DNA of 41,628 nucleotides from NCBI RefSeq assembly GCF_004010195.1, contig NC_057719.1, positions 44,925,097 through 44,966,724 of the forward strand. The letters are read 5' to 3'. Shown here piece after piece: positions 10,007 to 33,972 of the stretch. The notes under the pieces are model-generated. The model did not search any database and had not been told where the DNA came from. It saw nothing but the letters and a program-made list of their open reading frames with translations. The position numbers were made by a program, and so were the translations under genes. This stretch comes from Chiloscyllium plagiosum (taxonomy: Eukaryota). How positions within the stretch are numbered: position 1 is the first letter of the stretch; each line of letters begins with the position of its first letter.

Positions 10007-10330
<324 letters not shown>

Positions 10331-15741: not shown

Positions 15742-15946
15742 AGGAGAAAGTGAGGACTGCAGATGCTGGAGATCGGAGGTGAAAAATGTGTTGCTGGAAA
15801 AGCGCAGCAGGTCAGGCAGCATCCTAGGAGCAGGAGAATCGACGTTTTGGGCATAAGCCTGAAGAAGGGCTTATGCCCGAAACGTCGATTCTCCTGCTCC
15901 TTGGATGCTGCCTGATCTGCGCTTTTCCAGCAACACATTTTTCAGC
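15742..15946. mobile_element. Palindromic PLE mini-insertion (minus pLTR + plus pLTR) with intact hammerhead core and imperfect 16-bp TSD
   Basis: Arms 15780-15858 and 15868-15944 are inverted repeats. Flanks atgtctcataagagga (15730-15745) and atgtaccataagagga (15947-15962). Confidence 0.85.
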
Positions 15947-19128: not shown

Positions 19129-20575
19129 GAATCTAGGTTACTATCAGACTTGAGTGAAATGACTCCAGATGACCATTGTAGGCAGAATTATAGAGTCCCA
19201 ACAACAAAATATACATAGCAGCTTCTAAACAGAAAGAGCCAATAGTCACAGAAACACCTTCTCTGGTTTATTTAAGCTAATCAGAAATGAAGGAAATTTG
19301 TTTAGAACAGGTACAAACAGGAACTGGCTTTAGCCTTAGAGGAGTGGCTCATATTTCCTGGGTACTGCCTTCAGGCTACTATCCAAGTAAACATTTTGAA
19401 GATGAGTGTCAAATTTCCATCTATACTATGTAACAAATCAAATGCTTTCAGAAAGAACATTTTCAGCAGTTTTGTGTTATTGGCATTTATGCCGTTAGTC
19501 CTATTGAAACCATCCACGCTTCATGCAACACTTAGAGAAAGGGAAGAAACCAGTCTCAGTTCAAATGGTAAGTGGGAATCATTTATGATTTTCGGACTGA
19601 ATTCTTTTGTTGTTTGGAAGATGCTTAAAATATATTCTCTTTGAAGAAAATGTAACAACCAGTAACCTGATTTCAAAAAAAAATCACAAAAGCCTTTCAT
19701 TAACATGTCTGGGGCAAGTGGATTGCATCTGTAAGAATAATTAAGTGCATCCTTCTCTAATCTGTAAACTGAAAAGGGAAGTAGTCTACAGACTATTGTG
19801 AACAGGAGGAAAGAATTGGCAGTCATACCTTTCCCTCAAAATAAACAGACGTGCAAGGCATCTTCAGATCCAGTGGGAGCTATAATTCTAGTATGGGTCC
19901 TTCTGAGATTTGTCATTGCTGAGCTGCTGAACATTCTACTTAGGGGTCTCTTAAGAGTTAATGGGGAGGGCTTTTGTGCTGTGATGATAAAGTCCCTACC
20001 TCTGACCCAGAAGCCTGGGTTCAGGTCTCTCTTTATAATAACATCTTTGAATAGGTTGATTAGAAAATATCTTAAGTTAATGGGTTGAATTCACATGATG
20101 ATCCTGGAATTCTCGACACACTTTCTTAATGCTGAGGCTGGGTGAAAGATTCAAGAATGACATTGTAATCCATGCACTTCATAAGAGGTTTCAGACTTAA
20201 TATCATTAAAATGTAGAAGTATAGCACATATTGAAAGGAAAATGTAATTGTGCACTGATTTTATTCTGGTGCTTTGAAAATGCAACAACTTGTCTAAAGA
20301 AACAGGAGGTGGTTCTTTGATAACAAAGGAGAATTTTGTACTTGTTAAACATTTTAGCCTGATGCTGAGTGATGTGATCAGCTACTTAGCAGCTACCCAG
20401 AATTTGAATTGCAAGATAATAGTAAAATGATTAAATATTCTTTCTTAATATGGTAAGATTGAAATTTAAATATATTGCTGCTTCCTTCATGCGAGAATTG
20501 CTAATTTATTACGAATTGCTAAAAATATGTTGTCAAAGCTTTTCATCTTGCAATTATCGTGGCAGATGCTCATAT

Positions 20576-21152
20576 ACTGGGAACTGAGGTCATGTTGTGG
20601 CAATACAGGCCACTTTTGGAATATTGCTTTCAATTCTGGTTTACCTGCTATAGGAAAGATGTTGTGAAACTTGAGCGGTTTGGAAAAGATCTACAAGGAT
20701 GTTGCCAGGGTTGGAAGGTTTGAGCTCGAGGTACAGGTTGAATAGGCTGGGGCTGTTTTCCCTGGAGTTGGAGGCTGAGGGTTGACCTTATAGAAGTTTC
20801 TAAAATCACGAGGGGCATAGATAGGGTGAAAAGTGAAGGTATCTTCCCCAGGGTAGCAGAATTCAAAACTAGAGGGCATAGGTTTAAGGTGAGAGATGAA
20901 AAATCCAAGAAGGACCTAAGAGGCAACTTTTTTCATGCAGAGGGTGGTGCATATAGAATAAACTGTCAGAGGAAGTGGTGGAGGCTGCTGCATTTAAAAG
21001 GCATCTAGATGGGTATATGAATAGGAAGGGTTTGGAGGGATATGGTCCAAATGCTGGCAAATGGGTCTAGATTAATTCAGGATATCTCGTTGATGTGAAT
21101 GAGTTGGACCAAAGGGTCTGTTGCTGTACAGCTCTATTACTCTATGACTCTA
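20576..21152 (+). mobile_element. CR1 (HER1-like) LINE 3' fragment
   Basis: Reverse-complement homologue of 32170-32760; ends in the tail ctctattactctatgactctat. Confidence 0.9.
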
Positions 21153-21267
21153 TATTAATTATAAAAGGAGCAACAATTTATATTTCATGAAAAAAGGGGT
21201 ACTGATTGATTGGCAACTGAACCCTGATTAAGATATGCCATGGAGAAAGCTCCAGAAAACAGTTTTT

Positions 21268-21620
21268 ACTCTTTCACAGGGTATGACTGCCTCACTGCAG
21301 GACCAACATTTATTGTCCATCCTTATTACTATTGAACTAAGTGGCTTGCTGGACTAATTCAGAGTCAACCACGTTTTTGTGGGTTTAGAGGCACATGTGG
21401 GCCAATCCAGTTAAGAATGACAGATTCTTGTCCCTAAAAGCCATCAATGAAACAGATGGATTTTTACAACAGTTGATGAGAGTTTCATGGGCACTATTAT
21501 TGAGACAGGCTCTCAATTTAAAACTTCAACTCGATTTAAATTCCACCCACTGTAGCAGGATTTCAACCTCTCTATGGAAGTTACTAGTCTACTGACTTTA
21601 TCACTATGTCATCATCTCCT
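21268..21620 (-). mobile_element. tRNA-derived SINE (same family as 14862-15255)
   Basis: catttattgtccatcctt...gaactaagtggctt...cacatgtgggcca...cagatggatttttacaaca...aaattccaccc mirror the 14862-15255 copy. Confidence 0.7.
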
Positions 21621-21776
21621 CAAGCTTTTCTTTATGTTAAATAAAAGGTAGGTTAACTCTGATTGATTGAAGTGTTGCCATGGGTTGCAGTTTTCCCCAA
21701 GTTGTTCTTTTAAAAAAAGTACAAGGCCTGGACAGGTTATCTATGTTTACAAACAACAGGGCTTTGAATATGGATA

Positions 21777-22334
21777 TGGAGGGTCGGTGTGGACTGGTTG
21801 GGCCGAAAGGCCTGTTTCCACACTGTAGGGAATCTAATCTAATGTAAATTAATTGGGGATGGGGGAGAGGAGTACGGGTGTTGGGAGAGGGGAAATATAG
21901 GTTTACAAAGTAAGAGTATATAGCAAAATTAAAAGGCAGTTATTTGGATAACGATACCCAGAGTGGTATAGGAAGGGACATAACATACAAACATGGAAAA
22001 ATAGCTGTAAATAGGGTCAAAAAGCAGAAAAATATTTTTTTATGAAAGGCAGAATTAATGGTTCTTTACTTGAATGTACACAGTATTCAGAACAAAATAG
22101 ATGAATTAACTGCACAAATTCAGGTTAATGGATATGATTTCATAACCATGACAGAGACATGGTTACAAAGAGATCAAAGCTGGGAACTAAATATTCAGGA
22201 GTATATGACTTTTCAAAAGACATGCAGGAAAAAGAGGGTGGTAGGTTAGCAGTGTTGGTATGTATGGGATGGAATAAGTACAACAGCAAGAATGATCTTG
22301 AATCATATGTTATAGAATCCATACGGGCGGATGT
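21777..22334 (+). repeat. Left arm of a ~557-bp inverted duplication (V-SINE tail + CR1 ORF1/ORF2 junction and endonuclease start)
   Basis: Near-identical reverse complement of 24378-24934. Both arms encode the identical MVLYLNVHSIQNKIDELTAQIQVNGYDFITMTETWLQ (CR1 APE endonuclease). Confidence 0.95.
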
Positions 22335-23145
22335 AATAAATCAAAAGGGAAAGAAGTCACTGGTAGGAATTCTCTATAGCCCCCAACCGTTGCTGTACAG
22401 TGGAACAGAGAATAAATCAGGAAATAACGATCGCATGTAAAAAGGTAGAACAATACTCATGAATGACTTTAATCTTTAATCAGAAAGAGAATGAAAGGTT
22501 GTGGGGAAAAGACAGGAAAGTGAAATTGAGGATTATCAGATTAGCCATAATCTCATTGAATGGCAGAAGAGATTGAATGGGCAGAATGGTCTACTCCTGC
22601 TCCTATGTTTTACAGACTTATGAACTTTGATATGACCACATTTGGAATAGTGTGTGCAGTTTTGGTCTCCATATGCAAGGAAAGATCTACTTCTATTGGA
22701 GGCAGTACAGTGAAGAGTCAACATATTGGTTCCTGCAATAAGTGGATTGTCTCTATGTTCTCTAGAGTTTAGAAGAATGAAAGATGACCCCAATGAATCT
22801 TACAATATTTTGAAAGGATTTGATAAGATAGAGACTGAGAGTTTGTCTCCCCGAGCTGAAGAATCTGAAGCTTGGGTCACGACAACAGTCTTAGGATAAG
22901 AGGATCCATCATTTAAGAAAAAAACAGTAAGAAAATGTTTCAATCAAAAGATTGTGAATCTTTGAAATTATTAACTCAGAGAGTTGAACCATCACTAGAT
23001 ATATTTAAAGCTGGGATAGGCAGATATTCAGTCTATCAGGAAATCGTGGGATATAGGGAGATGACAACAACATTGAGCTGAGTTCAAAGAGCAGCCACAG
23101 TCATATTGGATGGCAGTACAAGGTGTATGGTCTAGTCCTGCTCTC
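21844..23145 (+). mobile_element. Old CR1 LINE relic (endonuclease start, internally deleted RT, 3' end)
   Basis: APE motifs YLNxxSI..K..EL and TETWL, later aatgactttaat (cf. GDFN); RT-end sequence gaccacatttggaatagtgtgtgcagttttggtctcc; tail tcctgctc at ~23140. Confidence 0.8.
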
Positions 23146-23259
23146 ATCTCTTGTGTACTTTTAATGTGTGCTCAATTGCAAAAATCAAATGCTTTTTCCA
23201 TAAAATTGGTGGCTTCTTAAAGACCACTGTGTGATAATATTTGAAGACAATCCATCCTA

Positions 23260-24257
23260 CAGCTTTGTAAACAGAACTTGTACGCATTTGCTCACTGAAT
23301 GAGCTTGGTGCCAAAACATGAAGCATAAGTGATCCTGTGGGATAATACCTACCCAACCGGATATACGGAATGGTCATCATCTATCATGAAAGCTCATAGT
23401 TGGGCCTAAGGCCGTCACTTTCAGTCCTGCAAAGTGCCAAGTATACCTTCGATTAACCTGAAAGATAAGGTGTCTCAAGATATATCAAGAAGCAGTGATG
23501 CTAGAGGTTATACAGTTGTTTTTTAATTTCAAAATATAATTTATTCATAATATAAGTTTATGTAAATACATGCTCACTAAAGCAGTTTGTTTCTTCATAT
23601 GCTAATGTGAAAAACCAAACAAATATCGGAGTTTGACTCCATTCAGCAAATAAACCAAAGGGATCTCTTACTTGTATAGAACTATATTTATATACATTTG
23701 AGGTTCTGGACAGATGCCCCATTTAATTTCAGCAGAAAGACCTTAGATAGTGATGTTTCTCCACTGTGCCTTGGCAGCAGCTGTGCCAAGCTTTAGTGAA
23801 TCTCTCAGCACGTAGTCTAAAACCTTGAAACATGCCAGTCTGGAACATTCTGTCGAGGTCAACTCCTTGCTCTGGAAAACCAACAGGTTCCAGCGACAGC
23901 AAATGCTGCTGCTGCTATGCAGTTGCAATAAGTGATGTTCCACAACAGGATACTGCCAGCAAGCCAAAACAACATTCTTTCTACCACACAAATGAGTAAT
24001 TGCCAGCAATTAAGCCATACCTCCCAAAGACTGGGAAATGATTTCAAGCATTGTATCCTTTCAGCTGTTTCCAAACGTGAGAGTACTTACTGAATTCAAC
24101 CAATTAATGCGCTCACAACACAGAACATATTCTTAATGGTAAGCATAAGAATATGAACAGATATCACAGAATAATCCCAAGTGTGTCAATTACACTGACC
24201 ATCAATTTAAGATTATCAGTTGGGCTTGCAATGTAGCTCATTATATTTGCTAAAAGC
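23260..24257 (+). mobile_element. Old PLE, RT-thumb/linker/GIY-YIG region, interrupted by a Tx1/L1 fragment and cut by the inversion breakpoint at 24257
   Basis: Decayed translations LVNR...ILWDNTYP...GPKAVTFSPAKCQVYLRLT*KDKVSQ; CCYAVA...RILPASQNNILSTTQMSN...HTSQRL; NNPKCVNYTDHQFKIISWACNVAH.YLLKA. Confidence 0.7.
23518..23895 (-). mobile_element. Tx1/L1-clade LINE 3' end
   Basis: ORF end RWNLLVFQSKELTSTECSRLACFKVLDYVLRDSLKLGTAAAKAQWRNITI*, followed by a 3'UTR with AATAAA and an A-rich tail on the minus strand. Confidence 0.7.
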
Positions 24258-24343
24258 AAGAATGATCTTGAATCATATGTTATAGAATCCATACGGGCAG
24301 ATGTAATAAATCAAAAGGGAAAGAAGTTACTGGTAGGAATTCT
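24255..24343 (+). repeat. 89-bp direct copy of 22285-22373 (templated insert 1)
   Basis: agcaagaatgatcttgaatcatatgttatagaatccatacgggc(a/g)gatgtaataaatcaaaagggaaagaagt(t/c)actggtaggaattct; 2 mismatches. Confidence 0.95.
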
Positions 24344-24378
24344 GTGATATCTGTTCATAATCATATGCTTACCATTAA
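24339..24378 (-). repeat. 40-bp inverted copy of 24133-24172 (templated insert 2)
   Basis: attctgtgatatctgttcataatcatatgcttaccattaa versus the reverse complement of ttaatggtaagcataagaatatgaacagatatcacagaat; 2 mismatches. Confidence 0.92.
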
Positions 24379-24934
24379 CATCCGCCCATATGGATTCTAT
24401 AACATATGATTCAAGATCATTCTTGCTGTTGTACTTATTCCATCCCATACATACCAACACTGCTAACCTACTACCCTCTTTTTCCTGCATGTCTTTTGAA
24501 AAGTCATATACTCCTGAATATTTAGTTCCCAGCTTTGATCTCTTTGTAACCATGTCTCTGTCATGGTTATGAAATCATATCCATTAACCTGAATTTGTGC
24601 AGTTAATTCATCTATTTTGTTCTGAATACTGTGTACATTCAAGTAAAGAACCATTAATCCTGCCTTTCTAAAAAAATATTTTTTGCTTTTTGACCCTATT
24701 TACAGCTATTTTTCTATGTTTGTATGTTATGTCCCTTCCTATACCACTCTGGGTATCGTTATCCAAATAACTGCCTTTTAATTTTGCTATATACTCTTAC
24801 TTTGTAAACCTATATTTCCCCTCTCCCAACACCCGTACTCCTCTCCCCCCATCCCCAATTAATTTACATTAGATTAGATTCCCTACAGTGTGGAAATAAG
24901 CCCTTCGGCTCAACCAGTCCACACCAACCCTCCA
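24378..24934 (-). repeat. Right arm of the ~557-bp inverted duplication
   Basis: Reverse complement of 21777-22334, with roughly a dozen differences by eye. Confidence 0.95.
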
Positions 24935-25184
24935 AAGAATAACCTACCCAGACCCATTTCCCTCTGACTAATGCACCTAACACGATGGGCAATTTAGCAT
25001 GGCCAATTCACCTAACCTGCACATCTTTGGACTGTGGGAGGAAACCGGAGTACCCGGAGGAAACCCACGCAGACACAGGGAGAATGTGCAAACTCCACAC
25101 AGACAATCACCCAAGACTAGAATCGAACCTGGGACCCAGGTGCTGTGAGGCTGCAGTGTTAGCCATTGAGCCACCATGATGCCC
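24868..25184 (-). mobile_element. V-SINE (HE1-like), full length, inserted in the CR1
   Basis: tRNA-like head (ggtggctcaatggctaacactgcagcctcacagc...ggttcgattct), V-domain tgtgtggagtttgcacattctccctgtgtctgcgtgggtttcctccggg, tail tttccacactgtagggaatctaatctaat. Confidence 0.92.
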
Positions 25185-25189
25185 TTAAA

Positions 25190-25545
25190 GTCATCGTGCC
25201 GCCCTTAATGTTCTCCCTACATTCCTAGTTATGTAATTCACCAAGACGTTGGTCCCAGTATGGTTCAAATGAGGCCATGACACCAGAACAGCTCTGTTCC
25301 ATGCCAGTACTGATGCTAGAGCCCCACAAACTTAAAACCTTTCACCCATACCAATCTTTAAGCCATGTATTTAACTCCTTTACTTTACTTTCCCAATGCC
25401 AATTTTCCCATGACTCGGGCTGTAGACCAGAGATGATCACCTTGAAGGTTCTGCTTTTCAATTTAGCTCCTCATTGTTCAAAGTCTTTCAACACAGCCTC
25501 CTTTCTCATCCTGCCAATGTCATTGGTGCCAGCATGAATGATAAA
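25190..25545 (-). mobile_element. CR1 ORF1 (SGNH esterase domain) relic; 5' part of the CR1 whose 3' part lies inverted at 22335-23145
   Basis: Minus frame IHAGTNDIGRMRKEAVLKDFEQ*GAKLKSRTFKVIISGLQPE...VKELNTWLKDWYG contains the HxGTND esterase motif of CR1 ORF1. Confidence 0.85.
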
Positions 25546-26283
25546 TACCCGATCCATTCCCTCCGTCTATATTCTTCTTCAGCATTGACCTGTGCAATTG
25601 CAAAAAGCCTGCTTTATTCTTTTACTCTGGTCCCTTTCCGATAAACATTAACATGCTATCTGTCTTCCTATTTGCCAGTTGCAGTAGATTCCAGCACTTT
25701 CCTGATGCCTGATGCCTCACGTCAGACTAATTAGTGTATTGTTCCCATTTTTCTTGTATAGTGGCGCTACATTTAGTAAATTCCAATTCGGTTGGGCCAG
25801 TCCAGGATCCAGGGAATTTTGGAAAATTATGGCCAGTGCATCCACGATCTCTGCAGCTATCTCTTTCAGAACTCTAAGATGTTGGTCATCTGATCCTAGC
25901 GATTTGTCAGATCTCAGTCCTTTTTTCCAGTATTTTTTCTCTGTTAAAATTAATTACCTTAATTTCATTACTCTGTTTATCACTTAAGTAATCCTGTATT
26001 TCATGATATATACAGCTTATATTTTTGACTGTAAAGACAGACACAAAATATTTCTTCCATATTCCACTGTTTTCACATTCCACACCATTTTTTATGTCTG
26101 TGATCCTAATAGACCAACATTTACTTTAGCTATTCCACCCCTATTTATATTTTATAGTCATATTTTAATAAAAATTTATATTTTTAGATTATACCCTTTG
26201 CTCTTTGATTTTGTATTTGGTTTTTTATTCTTTTTCTGAATCTACTGGTGGCAGTTTTCTGGTTCGAGCTTCGATAGAAGGGA

Positions 26284-29517: not shown

Positions 29518-29930
29518 TTAGCACTAAGATCAAGTGGCCCTGCTGTGTTTAGATTTGCCTACTGTGTCAGTTACACACCTTCACACAGCTGGGAAAAATT
29601 GTATAGGGGTTAGTTTTCTGCCTTTGGGACTTGCCTATAATTTTAAAAGTTCCAGAATTTTACTAACTCTACAAAAACCCAGGCCAGAAAGTACAATTCC
29701 TTCTCCTCTACCATAACAGGTTTCTTTAGCCTGTACTTGTACATAGTGGGTATTCTCCTTCCTCCCTACAGTATAAATCTACATCACTCATCTTAATACT
29801 TGACTCATGTGATACTTTACATTTACCAGCATCCATTTACATGTAACTTTCCAACTGGATTGCAATTGAATCCAAATGCAAACTGTTTACTGGACCCAAT
29901 ATTTTTGCTGCTCACCCTTTATTAGACCTA

Positions 29931-30120
29931 GTCAGAAATCACACAATGCCAGGTTCTAGTCCCACAAGTTTATTTCAACTCACAAGCTTTCGGAGCACTG
30001 TTCCTTCGACAATGCTCCAAAAGCTTGTGATTCCAAATAAACTTGTTGGATTACAGCCTGATGTCATGTGCCTTCTGACTTTGTCCACCCCAGCCTGACA
30101 CCTGCACCTCCACATCATGG
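29931..30120. mobile_element. Palindromic pLTR pair from a third PLE family
   Basis: Inverted arms gtcagaa...caagtttattt...tcacaagctttcggagca / tgctccaaaagcttgtga...aaataaacttg...ttctgac. Contains the hammerhead 3' half GGA(G/A)C-agt-GCTCC-GAAAgctt. Confidence 0.7.
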
Positions 30121-30818: not shown

Positions 30819-31697
30819 AGGAGGAAGTGAGGACTGCAGATGATGGAGATCAGAGTCGAGAGTGTGGTGCTGGTAAAGCACAGCAGGTCAGGCAGCATCC
30901 GAGGTGCAGAAGAGTCGATGTTTTGGGCATAAGGCCTTCATCGGGAAAGAGGCTTGTGGGCCAAGGGGCCTAAGAGATAAATTGGAGGAGGGTGGATCTG
31001 GGGGGAAAGTAACTGGGAGTGTGATAAGTAGATGAAGGTGGGGGTGAAGGTGAGAAGTCAGAGAGGAAGGTGGAGCAGATAGGTGGGAAGAAAGATGGAT
31101 AGGTTATAGGGAGTTGGAGGCTTGGGAGGGGAGGGGAAATGACAAAACTGGTGAAATCCACATTAATCCCATGTTGTGGTTGCAGGGTCCCAAGGCAGAA
31201 GATAAGGCATTCTTCCTTCAGGCATCAGATGGTTAGGTTTGGCGATGGAGGCAGCCCAGGACCTGCATTTCCTTGGTAGAGTAGGAGGGGGAGTTACAGT
31301 GTTCGGCCATTGGGTGGTTTGGGTGGTTGGGTTGGTTGGTGTGGATGTCCCAGAGATGTTCTCTGAAACAATCCTGCTGGTGTCCTGTCTCCCCGATGTA
31401 GAGGAGACCACATTGGGTGCAACAGATACAGTAGATGTATGGAAGTACAGGTAAATTTCTGGAAGTACAGGTAAATTTCCGTTGGATGTGGAAGGACACT
31501 TTGCAGCCTTGGACAGAGCTGAAGGGGAAGGTGTGGGCGTAGGTTTTGCGGTGGTAAGGAAAGGTGCCGAGAGTGGAGGATGAGTTGGTGGGAGATTTGG
31601 ATCTGATAAGGGAGTAGTGGAGGGAATGGTTTCTATGAAATGCTGATAGGGGTGGGCAGGGAAATATATCTTTAGTGGTGGGGTCTGTTTACAGGTG
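30819..31697 (-). mobile_element. PLE 3' half (GIY-YIG endonuclease + pLTR), left arm of a large outward-facing inverted PLE insertion
   Basis: ORF 31233-31499 FTCTS...IYCICCTQCGLLYIGETG...FREHLWDI...PMAEHCNS (GIY-YIG with CxxC); pLTR at 30819-30947; internal 20-bp tandem duplication at 31440-31479. Confidence 0.9.
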
Positions 31698-32169
31698 GTG
31701 GAGGTGGCAGAGGAGGCCTTCTTCTTCAAGGACTGCAATTTCCCCTCCCACATGATTGATGATTGCCTCTGGTGCATGTCCACCAATTGCCACACCTCCG
31801 CCCTTGACCCCCATCACTCCCAATGCAACAGGACAGAACCCTCCTGGTCCTCACCATCCACCCCACCAACATCTGCATACATCACATCATCCTCTGCCAC
31901 TTCTTCCACCTGCAAACAGACCCTACCATTTGGGATATATCCACCCCTATGTGCATTCCAGAGAGACCATTCCCTCCATAACTCCTGCGTCAGGTCCATG
32001 CCTCCCACCAGCCCGACCCCCGGCACCTTCCCCTGCCACCGTAGGAAGTGCAGATACTGCGCCCACAGCTTCCCCTCACACCTCCGTCCAATGCCCCAAA
32101 GGATCCTTCCACATCCGACAGAAATTTGCCAGTACATCCACTCACGCCATCTACCAGACGCCAACTTGT

Positions 32170-33124: not shown

Positions 33125-33571
33125 ATGTGAATTGTTTCAGAGAACATCTCTGGGACATGCGCACCAACCAACCCCACCGCCCCGTGGGCGAACACATTAA
33201 CTCCCTCTCTCACTCCACCAAGGACAAGCAGGTCCTGGGCCTCCTCCATCGCCACTCCCTAAACACCCAATGCCTGGAGGAAGAATGCCTCATCTTCTGC
33301 CTTGGGACCCTGCAACCACAACACTGGATCAATGTGGTTCTCACCAGTTTTCTCATTTCCCCACCCCCACTTTATCCCAGTGCCAAGCTTCCAACTTGGC
33401 TCCACCCACTTGACCTAGCCATCTTCCTTCCCATCTAACGTCTCCACCCTCCTCTCCGACTTATCACTTTTAGTCCCACCTTCATGAACCTATCACATTC
33501 CCAGCTACCTTTCCCAAGCTCCACCCCTCTCCCATTTATCTCTCAGTTCTCCTGGCCCACAATCCTCATTC

Positions 33572-33599
33572 CTGATGAAGGGCTTATGCCCGAAACGTT
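33572..33599 (+). ncRNA. Minimal hammerhead ribozyme motif (PLE type)
   Basis: CTGATGA-a-GGGC-ttat-GCCC-GAAA-cgtt (AACGTT palindrome, GUU triplet). Confidence 0.7.
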
Positions 33600-33972
33600 G
33601 ATTTTACTGCTTCACAGATAATGCGTGACCTGCTGTGCTTTTCCAACACTATACTCTTGACCAGGAAGTTTGGGGTATTCCAGGTTAGAAATCCAGCATC
33701 TGCAGTCCTCACTTTCTCCTGTATTCCAGGTTATCCTGGCAGTGCCGAGTTGTTGCCGGAATGGTGGGTGCTCAATGGAGCTAGAGCTAGATGAGTGGGA
33801 GGTCATAAAGGTCGAATGGGTAATTAATGAGGCATGTTTATTAAGATACAGTGAGAGCACCATTAGGTATTGAGGTGAGAAACCTTCCATAAAACCAAAT
33901 GCAATTGGTACTTAACCAAAAAAAAATGACTCAGCCTTTGTGGCATCTGATCTGAATTCACCTTGTGTAGAC

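Follow-up and report, generated by a model that had tools for sequence, protein, structure and literature searches.

The stretch of Chiloscyllium plagiosum DNA analyzed here (41,628 nucleotides, hereafter the window) carries an exon-like frame at 10007–10330, which was not named by Pfam and which we take to be frmd6. Further along, dead transposon DNA contains an inverted repeat that no gene is involved in and that has no evident function. The two arms are those claimed in the earlier note: the left arm (21777–22334, plus strand, 558 bp) is the reverse complement of the right arm (24378–24934, minus strand, 557 bp), with 97.85% identity over 559 columns. The 12 differences comprise 9 substitutions, all of them transitions, and 3 one-base gaps; in a self-comparison of the window, the second-best match of more than 500 bp reaches 77%.

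Between the arms lies a spacer of ∼1.92 kb (22335–24254, plus strand) in which the continuation of a LINE endonuclease relic (to ∼22470) is followed by LINE 3′-end pieces (22470–23145) and, from ∼23200, by a Penelope-like relic that is broken up by a high-copy repeat at ∼23520–23900. The left flank (21600–21776, minus strand) is, judging from its translation, presumably the tail of a Penelope-like relic cut at the break. On the other side, the right arm runs into the body of a full SINE (24868–25183, minus strand; 81–91% match to other window copies) and into an ORF1 relic (25190–25566, minus strand) whose translation is esterase-like and which we take to belong to a CR1-type LINE. The reading frames quoted previously were all found, namely the esterase-like frame at 25345–25566 (minus strand), the endonuclease-like frames on the arms, a C-terminal-like frame ending at 24258 (plus strand), and one starting at 21778 (minus strand). 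The proposal that 22335–23145 forms a single continuation of the endonuclease survives in part: ∼22335–22470 reads as endonuclease, whereas 22624–22830 matches 3′ ends of LINEs at other sites in the window. An open frame at 22138–22440 spans the arm/spacer boundary, and because the LINE endonuclease relic continues across that boundary, the spacer is almost certainly inverted relative to the right flank.

External references for these relics were scarce. Of 10 translated fragments from the various relics, one matched PF03372 at an E-value of 0.05, which is below the Pfam cut-off, and the look-alike found in the protein atlas belongs to a cluster with PF03372 on 21% of its members (score 0.93); other searches yielded two candidates, neither significant, chance matches in the PDB, and none among viral contigs. 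Two esterase-like ORF1 fragments gave no Pfam match. For the Penelope-like relic, no usable reference came from Pfam, the atlas, or word-based searches; phmmer on representatives returned two matches, both to unrelated repetitive proteins, a metagenome scan returned 254 pattern matches of which none was confirmed, DNA motif scans returned 0, and other copies were not found in the window. Rfam, searched at E-values up to 1 over 20500–26200, likewise gave 0 matches. The two Penelope-like texts, which would belong to a C-terminal GIY-YIG endonuclease, seem to adjoin across 24258/21776 to within a few bases of what is expected for shark Penelope ends, and the left flank was very probably once joined to this end of the spacer.

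The arms are not equivalent. The right arm occupies the site of the original single copy, and the left arm is the derived, inverted copy, consisting of a 67-bp SINE/LINE tail, the end of the ORF1 region, and the start of the endonuclease relic. It begins abruptly inside the SINE tail, the whole SINE being present only at 24868–25183, and because that tail sits within the duplicated arm, the SINE must be older than the event; that the event is younger than the elements it cut, as the earlier note held, follows by logic. Thus, formerly single-copy DNA is present as an inverted duplication at one breakpoint; the end of the left flank has no copy elsewhere in the window that would mark a duplication at the second. 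Differences between the arms are unevenly spread. The left arm's outer 38 bp (21777–21814) hold 5 of the 9 substitutions, and among 200,000 random placements a fraction of 0.0028 put as many as 5 of 9 into some 30-bp span; the interior (21815–22334) has 4 in 518 aligned bases. We read the former as unhomogenized and the latter as homogenized. At 21796, both arms carry G, whereas the other window copies (4 of 4) carry T.

At the right junction, the earlier note saw a plain join. The local rearrangement is real, but two locally copied inserts, of 89 and 40 bp, had been overlooked. The first (24255–24343, plus strand) is a direct copy, with 2 differences in 89, of 22285–22373, that is, of the final 50 bp of the left arm and the initial 39 bp of the spacer. 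The second (24339–24378, minus strand) is a reverse copy of 24133–24172, with 2 differences in 40. The inserts overlap each other by 5 bases, and the second overlaps the right arm by 1 base. Altogether, four new junctions lie within 2.6 kb, and the copied segments of 557, 89, and 40 bp all have their sources within 2.6 kb; this is a four-junction copy-and-paste rearrangement that combines direct and inverted copies from local templates. Together with the right arm's inner end, insert 1 also forms a nested short inverted repeat (24255–24427) with a 50-bp stem and a 73-base loop, which, folded as single-stranded DNA, has a stability of −50.1 kcal/mol (z −13.1), equaled by 0 of 200 shuffles. The initial 50 bp of insert 1 constitute a third copy of arm sequence and may also have been converted.

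The junctions were checked in raw-data contigs from four of 24 listed runs (X4, X6, X13, and X15) covering this species (A) and two others (B and C). New junctions are spanned in contigs of two individuals of this species, from two studies, and of both other species, which disposes of the assembly artifact that the earlier note had allowed for: the rearrangement is real. The left junction, present in A, B, and C, is crossed unclipped in all four runs, with 62 letters beyond it in X6, 30 in X13, and 28 in X4 and X15; a 31-letter crossing rule is satisfied by X6 only, the other runs being 1–3 letters below it. The spacer/insert junction is crossed by 34 letters in X13 (record 8) and, among the contigs listed, in C only, those of A and B ending at 24167–24233. 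Both the insert/insert and the insert/arm junctions are crossed in X4 (record 24). Across the single-copy flanks and spacer, B differs from the window at 69 of 2414 positions (2.9%) and C at 83 of 2381 (3.5%), compared with 14 of 2672 and 10 of 1673 (0.5–0.6%) for the same-species runs; the letter comparison between runs and window draws on 40 of 172 letter rows. That the event is older than the split of the three species is thus close to certain. The ancestral join was not seen among 15 of 437 joints, and the contigs showed no intermediate allele. A pile-up of SINE sequence, with a summed depth of >700,000 at 21700–21919, swamped the tables of joints and loose ends, so a missing ancestral joint there is no evidence. 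Because no run displayed the ancestral join, we infer the ancestral order: the left flank, then the spacer turned the other way round, a single arm copy, and the right flank.

The similarity of the arms does not give the age of this event. The earlier note used the ∼2% difference between them as an age gauge, and this fails: with junctions shared by species that are 2.9 and 3.5% diverged, the event must be older than the 0.8% difference of the arm interior implies. In this one lineage, the arms are more alike than are orthologs between species. For the interior (4/518), Fisher's test gives p = 0.0003 versus C and 0.003 versus B, the division into interior and outer segment having been set after the cluster was seen; for the whole arm (1.6%, 9/556), p is 0.021 versus C and not significant versus B (0.11). 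Over the 191 bp of 21933–22123, the arms differ at 2 sites, and comparison of the left arm with two contigs of C (depths 6.5 and 3.5, each of which may be either arm) gives 12 and 13 differences (p = 0.011). A stretch covered in B has 7 differences in 136 versus 1 between the arms here (p = 0.066, not significant), and 22173–22318, with a one-base difference in each of B and C, carries no signal. At 21868, both arms here have A, whereas contigs of B and C have G, which is absent from another contig of C (depth 3.8 of 12.3); at 21984, both have C, whereas C reads T at full depth and B reads T in 1 of 2 contigs. With regard to GC-biased conversion, these two informative sites changed in opposite directions (G to A and T to C), and GC content is 37.6% in the arm and 37.9% in the spacer. 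The outer 38 bp pooled with the inserts are 5.4% diverged, compared with 0.8% for the interior. It is therefore very likely that later arm-to-arm gene conversion homogenized the interior of the arms, in one lineage only as far as is seen and perhaps in a single tract. Given such conversion, an arm divergence of 2% under-dates the event. At 7e-10 mutations per base per generation, the rate given in PMC10587355, divergences of 2.9–3.5% correspond to 20–25 million generations, which we take as an upper-range figure; the age of the event is many millions of years, and nothing finer.

The best explanation, which we regard as reasonably probable, is that dead transposon DNA preserves the trace of one repair event and that the arms made by this event later recombined with each other. 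The chromosome would have broken within the Penelope-like relic, and the left end would have been extended along the opposite strand, starting within the SINE tail 2.5 kb off, or else that end may have been joined to a filled-in staggered end at the SINE tail; either would have duplicated 557 bp and reversed the spacer. The other join holds the copies of 89 and 40 bases described above; two short template switches, via overlaps of 1–5 bases, may have closed it by copying DNA that adjoined the two ends. The structure was inherited by the three descendant species. Later, on the branch leading to C. plagiosum, gene conversion in one tract or more would have replaced most of one arm by sequence of the other, so that the outer 38 bp and the inserts stayed more diverged than the interior. 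The earlier proposal of a local inversion with a duplicated breakpoint is supported in that the rearrangement is real and that, with respect to the right flank, the spacer almost certainly lies inverted; the proposal is incomplete, and the inversion need not have come first, even if we lean slightly toward the first event, and not a subsequent flip, as its origin. Two simpler routes were rejected. Twin-priming inversion within one LINE does not account for an inverted block that spans several unrelated elements, and simple crossover of two pre-existing inverted SINE tails predicts a reciprocal tail that is missing at the spacer end.

The least unlikely of the other readings retains every junction of this scheme and changes only the order: a templated insertion of 0.69 kb (reverse arm, 40 bp, and 89 bp) would have come first, and a later crossover between the arms would have flipped the spacer, so that both orientations may exist today. 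When the spacer is flipped between the arms on paper, all of the new DNA gathers in one block at one break; moreover, the arms here appear to have exchanged sequence, and in yeast (PMC9731477) and humans (PMC3961182) spacers flip back through crossover between the inverted repeats at their ends. Against this, an extra step is required, conversions far outnumber inversions, by 56 to 3, in a Y palindrome (PMC3723533), and the contigs break inside the arms, placing spacer orientation in other samples outside their span. There is also a slender chance that the join was triggered by a retrotransposon, the 67-bp tail on the left being a new 5′-truncated cDNA primed in the old SINE tail and bridging to the break. 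This would account for the five clustered differences, for at 4 of these 5 sites the left tail equals another window copy, the right tail being the one that deviates, and L1 activity is described in PMC11702581 as yielding local inversions and inverted duplications in cells. The arms nevertheless share the G at 21796 and have tails of equal length, and 5 in 38 exceeds the species-level rate only slightly (p = 0.011), which fits an unconverted edge.

Readings that dispense with conversion fare worse. An event slightly older than the species splits, with interiors alike by chance or slow mutation, is improbable: it is consistent with the nearly unchanged 22173–22318 and with the whole-arm comparison to B, but orthologous arm pieces diverge (7/136 in B and 12–13/191 in C), whereas the two arms here show 1 and 2 differences over those pieces. 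More improbable still is that assembly polishing made the window arms alike. Near-identical repeats are prone to such artifacts, which were also weighed in PMC9731477, and a contig of a diverged arm could exist beyond those listed. In run X4, however, the arm contigs have about double depth (11.9 and 16, single-copy pieces having 6.5–8.7) and contain 5 and 0 other letters, indicating that the arms collapse in an independent graph; they also hold right-arm gap states at 21860 and 22043, and the substitutions between the window arms are exclusively transitions. A young, private, or polymorphic event, or an assembly chimera, we consider next to impossible. The 97.85% identity of the arms would suit it, but the junctions recur in two individuals from two studies and in two species with flanks diverged by 2.9–3.5%, and the diverged letters beside those junctions argue against contamination or hybrid origin of the B and C runs.

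Events of this kind are already known. The 2h and 2q inversions of Drosophila mojavensis carry inverted duplications from staggered breaks, and, in PMC3355041, inversions are dated from the divergence of the duplicates and a single staggered break is allowed for 2h. As there, formerly single-copy DNA is duplicated in inverted form at the ends of an inverted segment; in contrast, the shark segment is 2 kb long, only one break is duplicated, two templated inserts occupy the other join, and the duplicates have not diverged in a clock-like manner. The tight cluster of breakpoints on one chromosome, the low copy gains from local templates, and the mixture of inverted and direct junctions resemble the local n-jumps of PMC7025897, which are features of human tumors and larger in scale, whereas the shark event took place in the germline and predates three shark species. 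With the human Y palindrome P6 (PMC3723533) and the Saccharomyces flip/flop region (PMC9731477), the shark repeat shares boundaries common to several species and arms that resemble each other more closely than orthologs from different species do, the latter in one shark lineage. Its arms are 0.56 kb of gene-free, dead transposon, compared with 4 kb with genes in yeast and ∼100 kb in P6, and a steady-state conversion rate would be ∼2e-7 per base per generation, compared with the 2.2e-4 quoted for Y palindromes. Inversions in herring (PMC11499932) and humans (PMC3961182) likewise have inverted repeats at both ends, inviting re-inversion; in these papers, the repeats are held to predate and cause the inversion, whereas the shark repeat was created by the event, because its left arm starts within the SINE tail. 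No shark case of such an event was found in open-license full text and listings.

The locus suggests that arm-to-arm conversion acts on arms of 0.56 kb that lie 2 kb apart, with no gene to protect. A bolder and rather doubtful view is that an insertion-born inverted repeat of 0.56 kb is still recombining in living sharks, its arms homogenized species by species; this predicts a flip/flop polymorphism of the 2-kb spacer. If true, continuing recombination here would be among the smallest vertebrate cases of the palindrome process, and among those free of selection, and the outer 38 bp together with the two inserts would serve as built-in, unconverted clocks for measuring how conversion compares with mutation in a lineage that mutates slowly. 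Dating the inversion by the divergence of its breakpoint duplicates, as in PMC3355041 and in the earlier note, gives an age several-fold too young. The value of this repeat is as a clean natural test case, and as a warning against dating inversions from their mirror-image ends.

The inverted duplication described in an earlier note is present: the left arm, 21777-22334 (+), matches the reverse complement of the right arm, 24378-24934 (-), at 97.85% over 559 columns in a self-comparison of the window, in which no other self-match of similar length exceeds 77%. The arms differ by nine substitutions, all of them transitions (9/9), and three one-base gaps. The anatomy given in the note was largely right, except that it overlooked two further copies between the spacer (22335-24254) and the right arm. 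Insert 1, 24255-24343 (+), is a direct copy of 22285-22373 (the arm's last 50 bp and the spacer's first 39 bp) with two differences, and insert 2, 24339-24378 (-), matches 24133-24172 in reverse complement, also with two differences. The inserts overlap by five bases, and insert 2 overlaps the right arm by one, giving four new junctions at 21776/7, about 24254/5, 24339-43, and 24378. Insert 1 and the right arm's inner end can form a nested 50-bp stem (-50.1 kcal/mol, z -13.1, 0/200 shuffles).

The left arm's start falls within a 67-bp repeat tail, the whole element of which lies at 24868-25183, which makes the right position the original and the left a copy. The boundary between left arm and spacer lies within an open frame, 22138-22440, that looks like part of an endonuclease. 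In the atlas it scores 0.93 against a cluster in which 21% of members carry PF03372, and in Pfam the arm fragment matches PF03372 at E 0.05, below the cut-off. Such a frame implies that the spacer's left end once followed the single original arm. Since that arm sits to the right and points the other way, the spacer is in inverted orientation with respect to the right flank. The endonuclease relic had been thought to continue up to 23145, which is too long, as 22624-22830 aligns with the 3' ends of LINEs at other places in the window. The translated texts quoted for a Penelope-like relic were found as given, and we take the two to fit elements of this kind to within a few bases; Pfam, atlas, phmmer, word-based, metagenome-scan, and DNA motif searches returned no reference for it. 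From this relic, we infer that the left flank was formerly joined to the spacer's right end. Within it, at about 23460-23900, lies a high-copy repeat (summed depth up to 3,000 versus about 10 alongside) found in all three species discussed below. The left flank carries the same 12-13 base motif twice (21200-21215 and 21658-21670; weak alignment score), which may be the Penelope-like 3' end in partial tandem. Another LINE piece, 25717-25953 (-), lies immediately upstream of the esterase-like ORF1 relic; it has no Pfam hit and a text that presumably represents a reverse-transcriptase region.

The stretch is present in 18 of the 24 runs listed, under three species labels: one taken, by share, as that of the window (A) and two others (B and C). 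Four of the 24 were aligned to 21150-24420 at 88% likeness, namely X4 and X15 (A, two studies), X6 (B), and X13 (C). All four cross the left junction without a clipped end, by 62 letters in X6, 30 in X13, and 28 in X4 and X15; the tool's 31-letter rule is satisfied there by X6 only, and the contigs of the other three appear to end where a 31-letter-word graph should branch in a high-copy repeat. At the spacer/insert junction, X13 reads 34 letters across; the listed contigs of A and B end before it, at 24167-24233. Record 24 of X4 (24269-24407) spans the two remaining junctions (24339-43 and 24378). Compared with the window, contigs of the flanks and spacer show differences at 69/2414 positions in B (2.9%, 95% interval 2.2-3.6), 83/2381 in C (3.5%, 2.8-4.3), and 14/2672 and 10/1673 within A. 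These sums use 5/8 listed records for B, 5/8 for C, 6/8 for X4, and 5/8 for X15, omitting records that lie in the arm, as well as two from X15 that represent different copies of repeats; a few of those kept overlap an arm end. Because the junctions occur in contigs of three species with diverged flanks, the rearrangement is real, not an assembly artefact, and is older than the split of A, B, and C. No ancestral joint was found among the 15 listed of the 437 joints in the four runs over 21150-24420. At 22745, X6 carries 19 extra bases that the other three runs lack.

The earlier note had taken an arm difference of ~2% as a sign of youth. This dating is wrong: the structure is common to all three species, with an arm interior only 0.8% apart. 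In the absence of exchange, the arms should be no closer to each other than orthologs are; they are closer, which argues for gene conversion between them. Over the whole arm, the difference is 9/556 (1.6%; p 0.021 versus C, 0.11 versus B). The outer 38 bp hold 5/9 of the substitutions (clustering 0.0028 in 200,000 placements), and the interior, in a split chosen after the fact, has 4/518 (0.8%; p 0.0003 versus C, 0.003 versus B). A better, direct test comes from 21933-22123, where the arms differ at 2 sites and the two contigs of C show 12 and 13 differences to the left arm (p 0.011), an order that is wrong without exchange whether those contigs are left or right orthologs. For B, the same kind of comparison gives 7/136, versus 1/136 between the arms (p 0.066). 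Single sites point the same way among the 40 letter rows listed out of 172: site 21868 is G in B and also in C's main contig, and A in both window arms, a minor contig of C lacking the G; 21984 is T in both contigs of species C and in 1/2 of those of B, and cytosine in both window arms. About 145 bp of the arm (22173-22318) show a single difference in each of B and C and are uninformative on conversion; this near-unchanged stretch adjoins 191 bp with 12-13 differences in C, a contrast due either to chance or to conversion in the direction of the ancestral state. Pooled, the two inserts and the arm's outer 38 bp show 9/167 differences (5.4%, 2.5-10%; p 0.0007 versus the arm interior); they seem to have escaped homogenisation, and their value is consistent with an event that slightly predates the A/C split. 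Such homogenisation is seen in the lineage of A only, for which a single long tract is sufficient. That assembly polishing made the arms alike is unlikely, as the arms merge in X4 into contigs with depths of 11.9 and 16, versus 6.5-8.7 for single-copy pieces, and with 5 and 0 other letters. At the shark pedigree mutation rate of 7e-10 per base per generation, given in PMC10587355, the species splits correspond to 20-25 million generations, a crude conversion and probably high; we claim an age of many millions of years and nothing finer.

Most likely, repair of a break within the Penelope-like relic proceeded by DNA synthesis from templates close by. One end would have taken up the opposite strand within the SINE tail, or joined a filled-in staggered end, thereby duplicating 557 bp, and the other join would have involved two short switches of template next to the joined ends. 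Either polymerase theta or replication template switching would yield such a structure. Gene conversion between the arms would afterwards have reset their interior. We think it somewhat more likely than not that the inversion arose in the first event. Since the arms recombine, it may instead be a later crossover between them: when the inter-arm sequence is flipped on paper, all of the new DNA becomes one 0.69-kb insertion at one break, with the spacer un-inverted. We regard this order, insertion before inversion, as rather unlikely. A minor alternative has the left tail supplied by a cDNA donor. This is in keeping with the commoner letter there at 4/5 differing sites, but the G that the two arms have in common at 21796 is missing from 4/4 other copies in the window.

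The window holds other inverted structures. Six kb to the right is a second, nested one (30855-31372 with 33131-33661, and 31460-31714 with 31890-32140), whose arms are 77% and 72% identical and not homogenised, and one side of which includes the 3' end of a LINE; it is either an old fold-back or two independent copies. A near-palindrome at 15780-15944 (88% self-complementary) is built from a common short repeat, two copies of which meet tail to tail, and 29930-30080 is a 151-bp MITE-like element with inverted ends (74% self-complementary). An open frame ending in a stop, 10007-10330 (+), lies 11.4 kb left of the rearrangement and has only a weak, unrelated Pfam hit; it resembles the last coding exon of frmd6.

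No function of the rearrangement is evident, and no shark case of such a structure was found in searches of open-licence full text and listings. Its origin resembles that of inversions made by staggered breaks, with their inverted duplications (PMC3355041), and that of local n-jumps, with their templated copies (PMC7025897); its later history resembles arm-to-arm conversion in Y palindromes (PMC3723533) and in the yeast flip/flop region (PMC9731477); re-inversion is also described for humans (PMC3961182) and herring (PMC11499932). The rearrangement differs from these systems in its very small, gene-free arm, made by the event itself. It belongs to known kinds of event.
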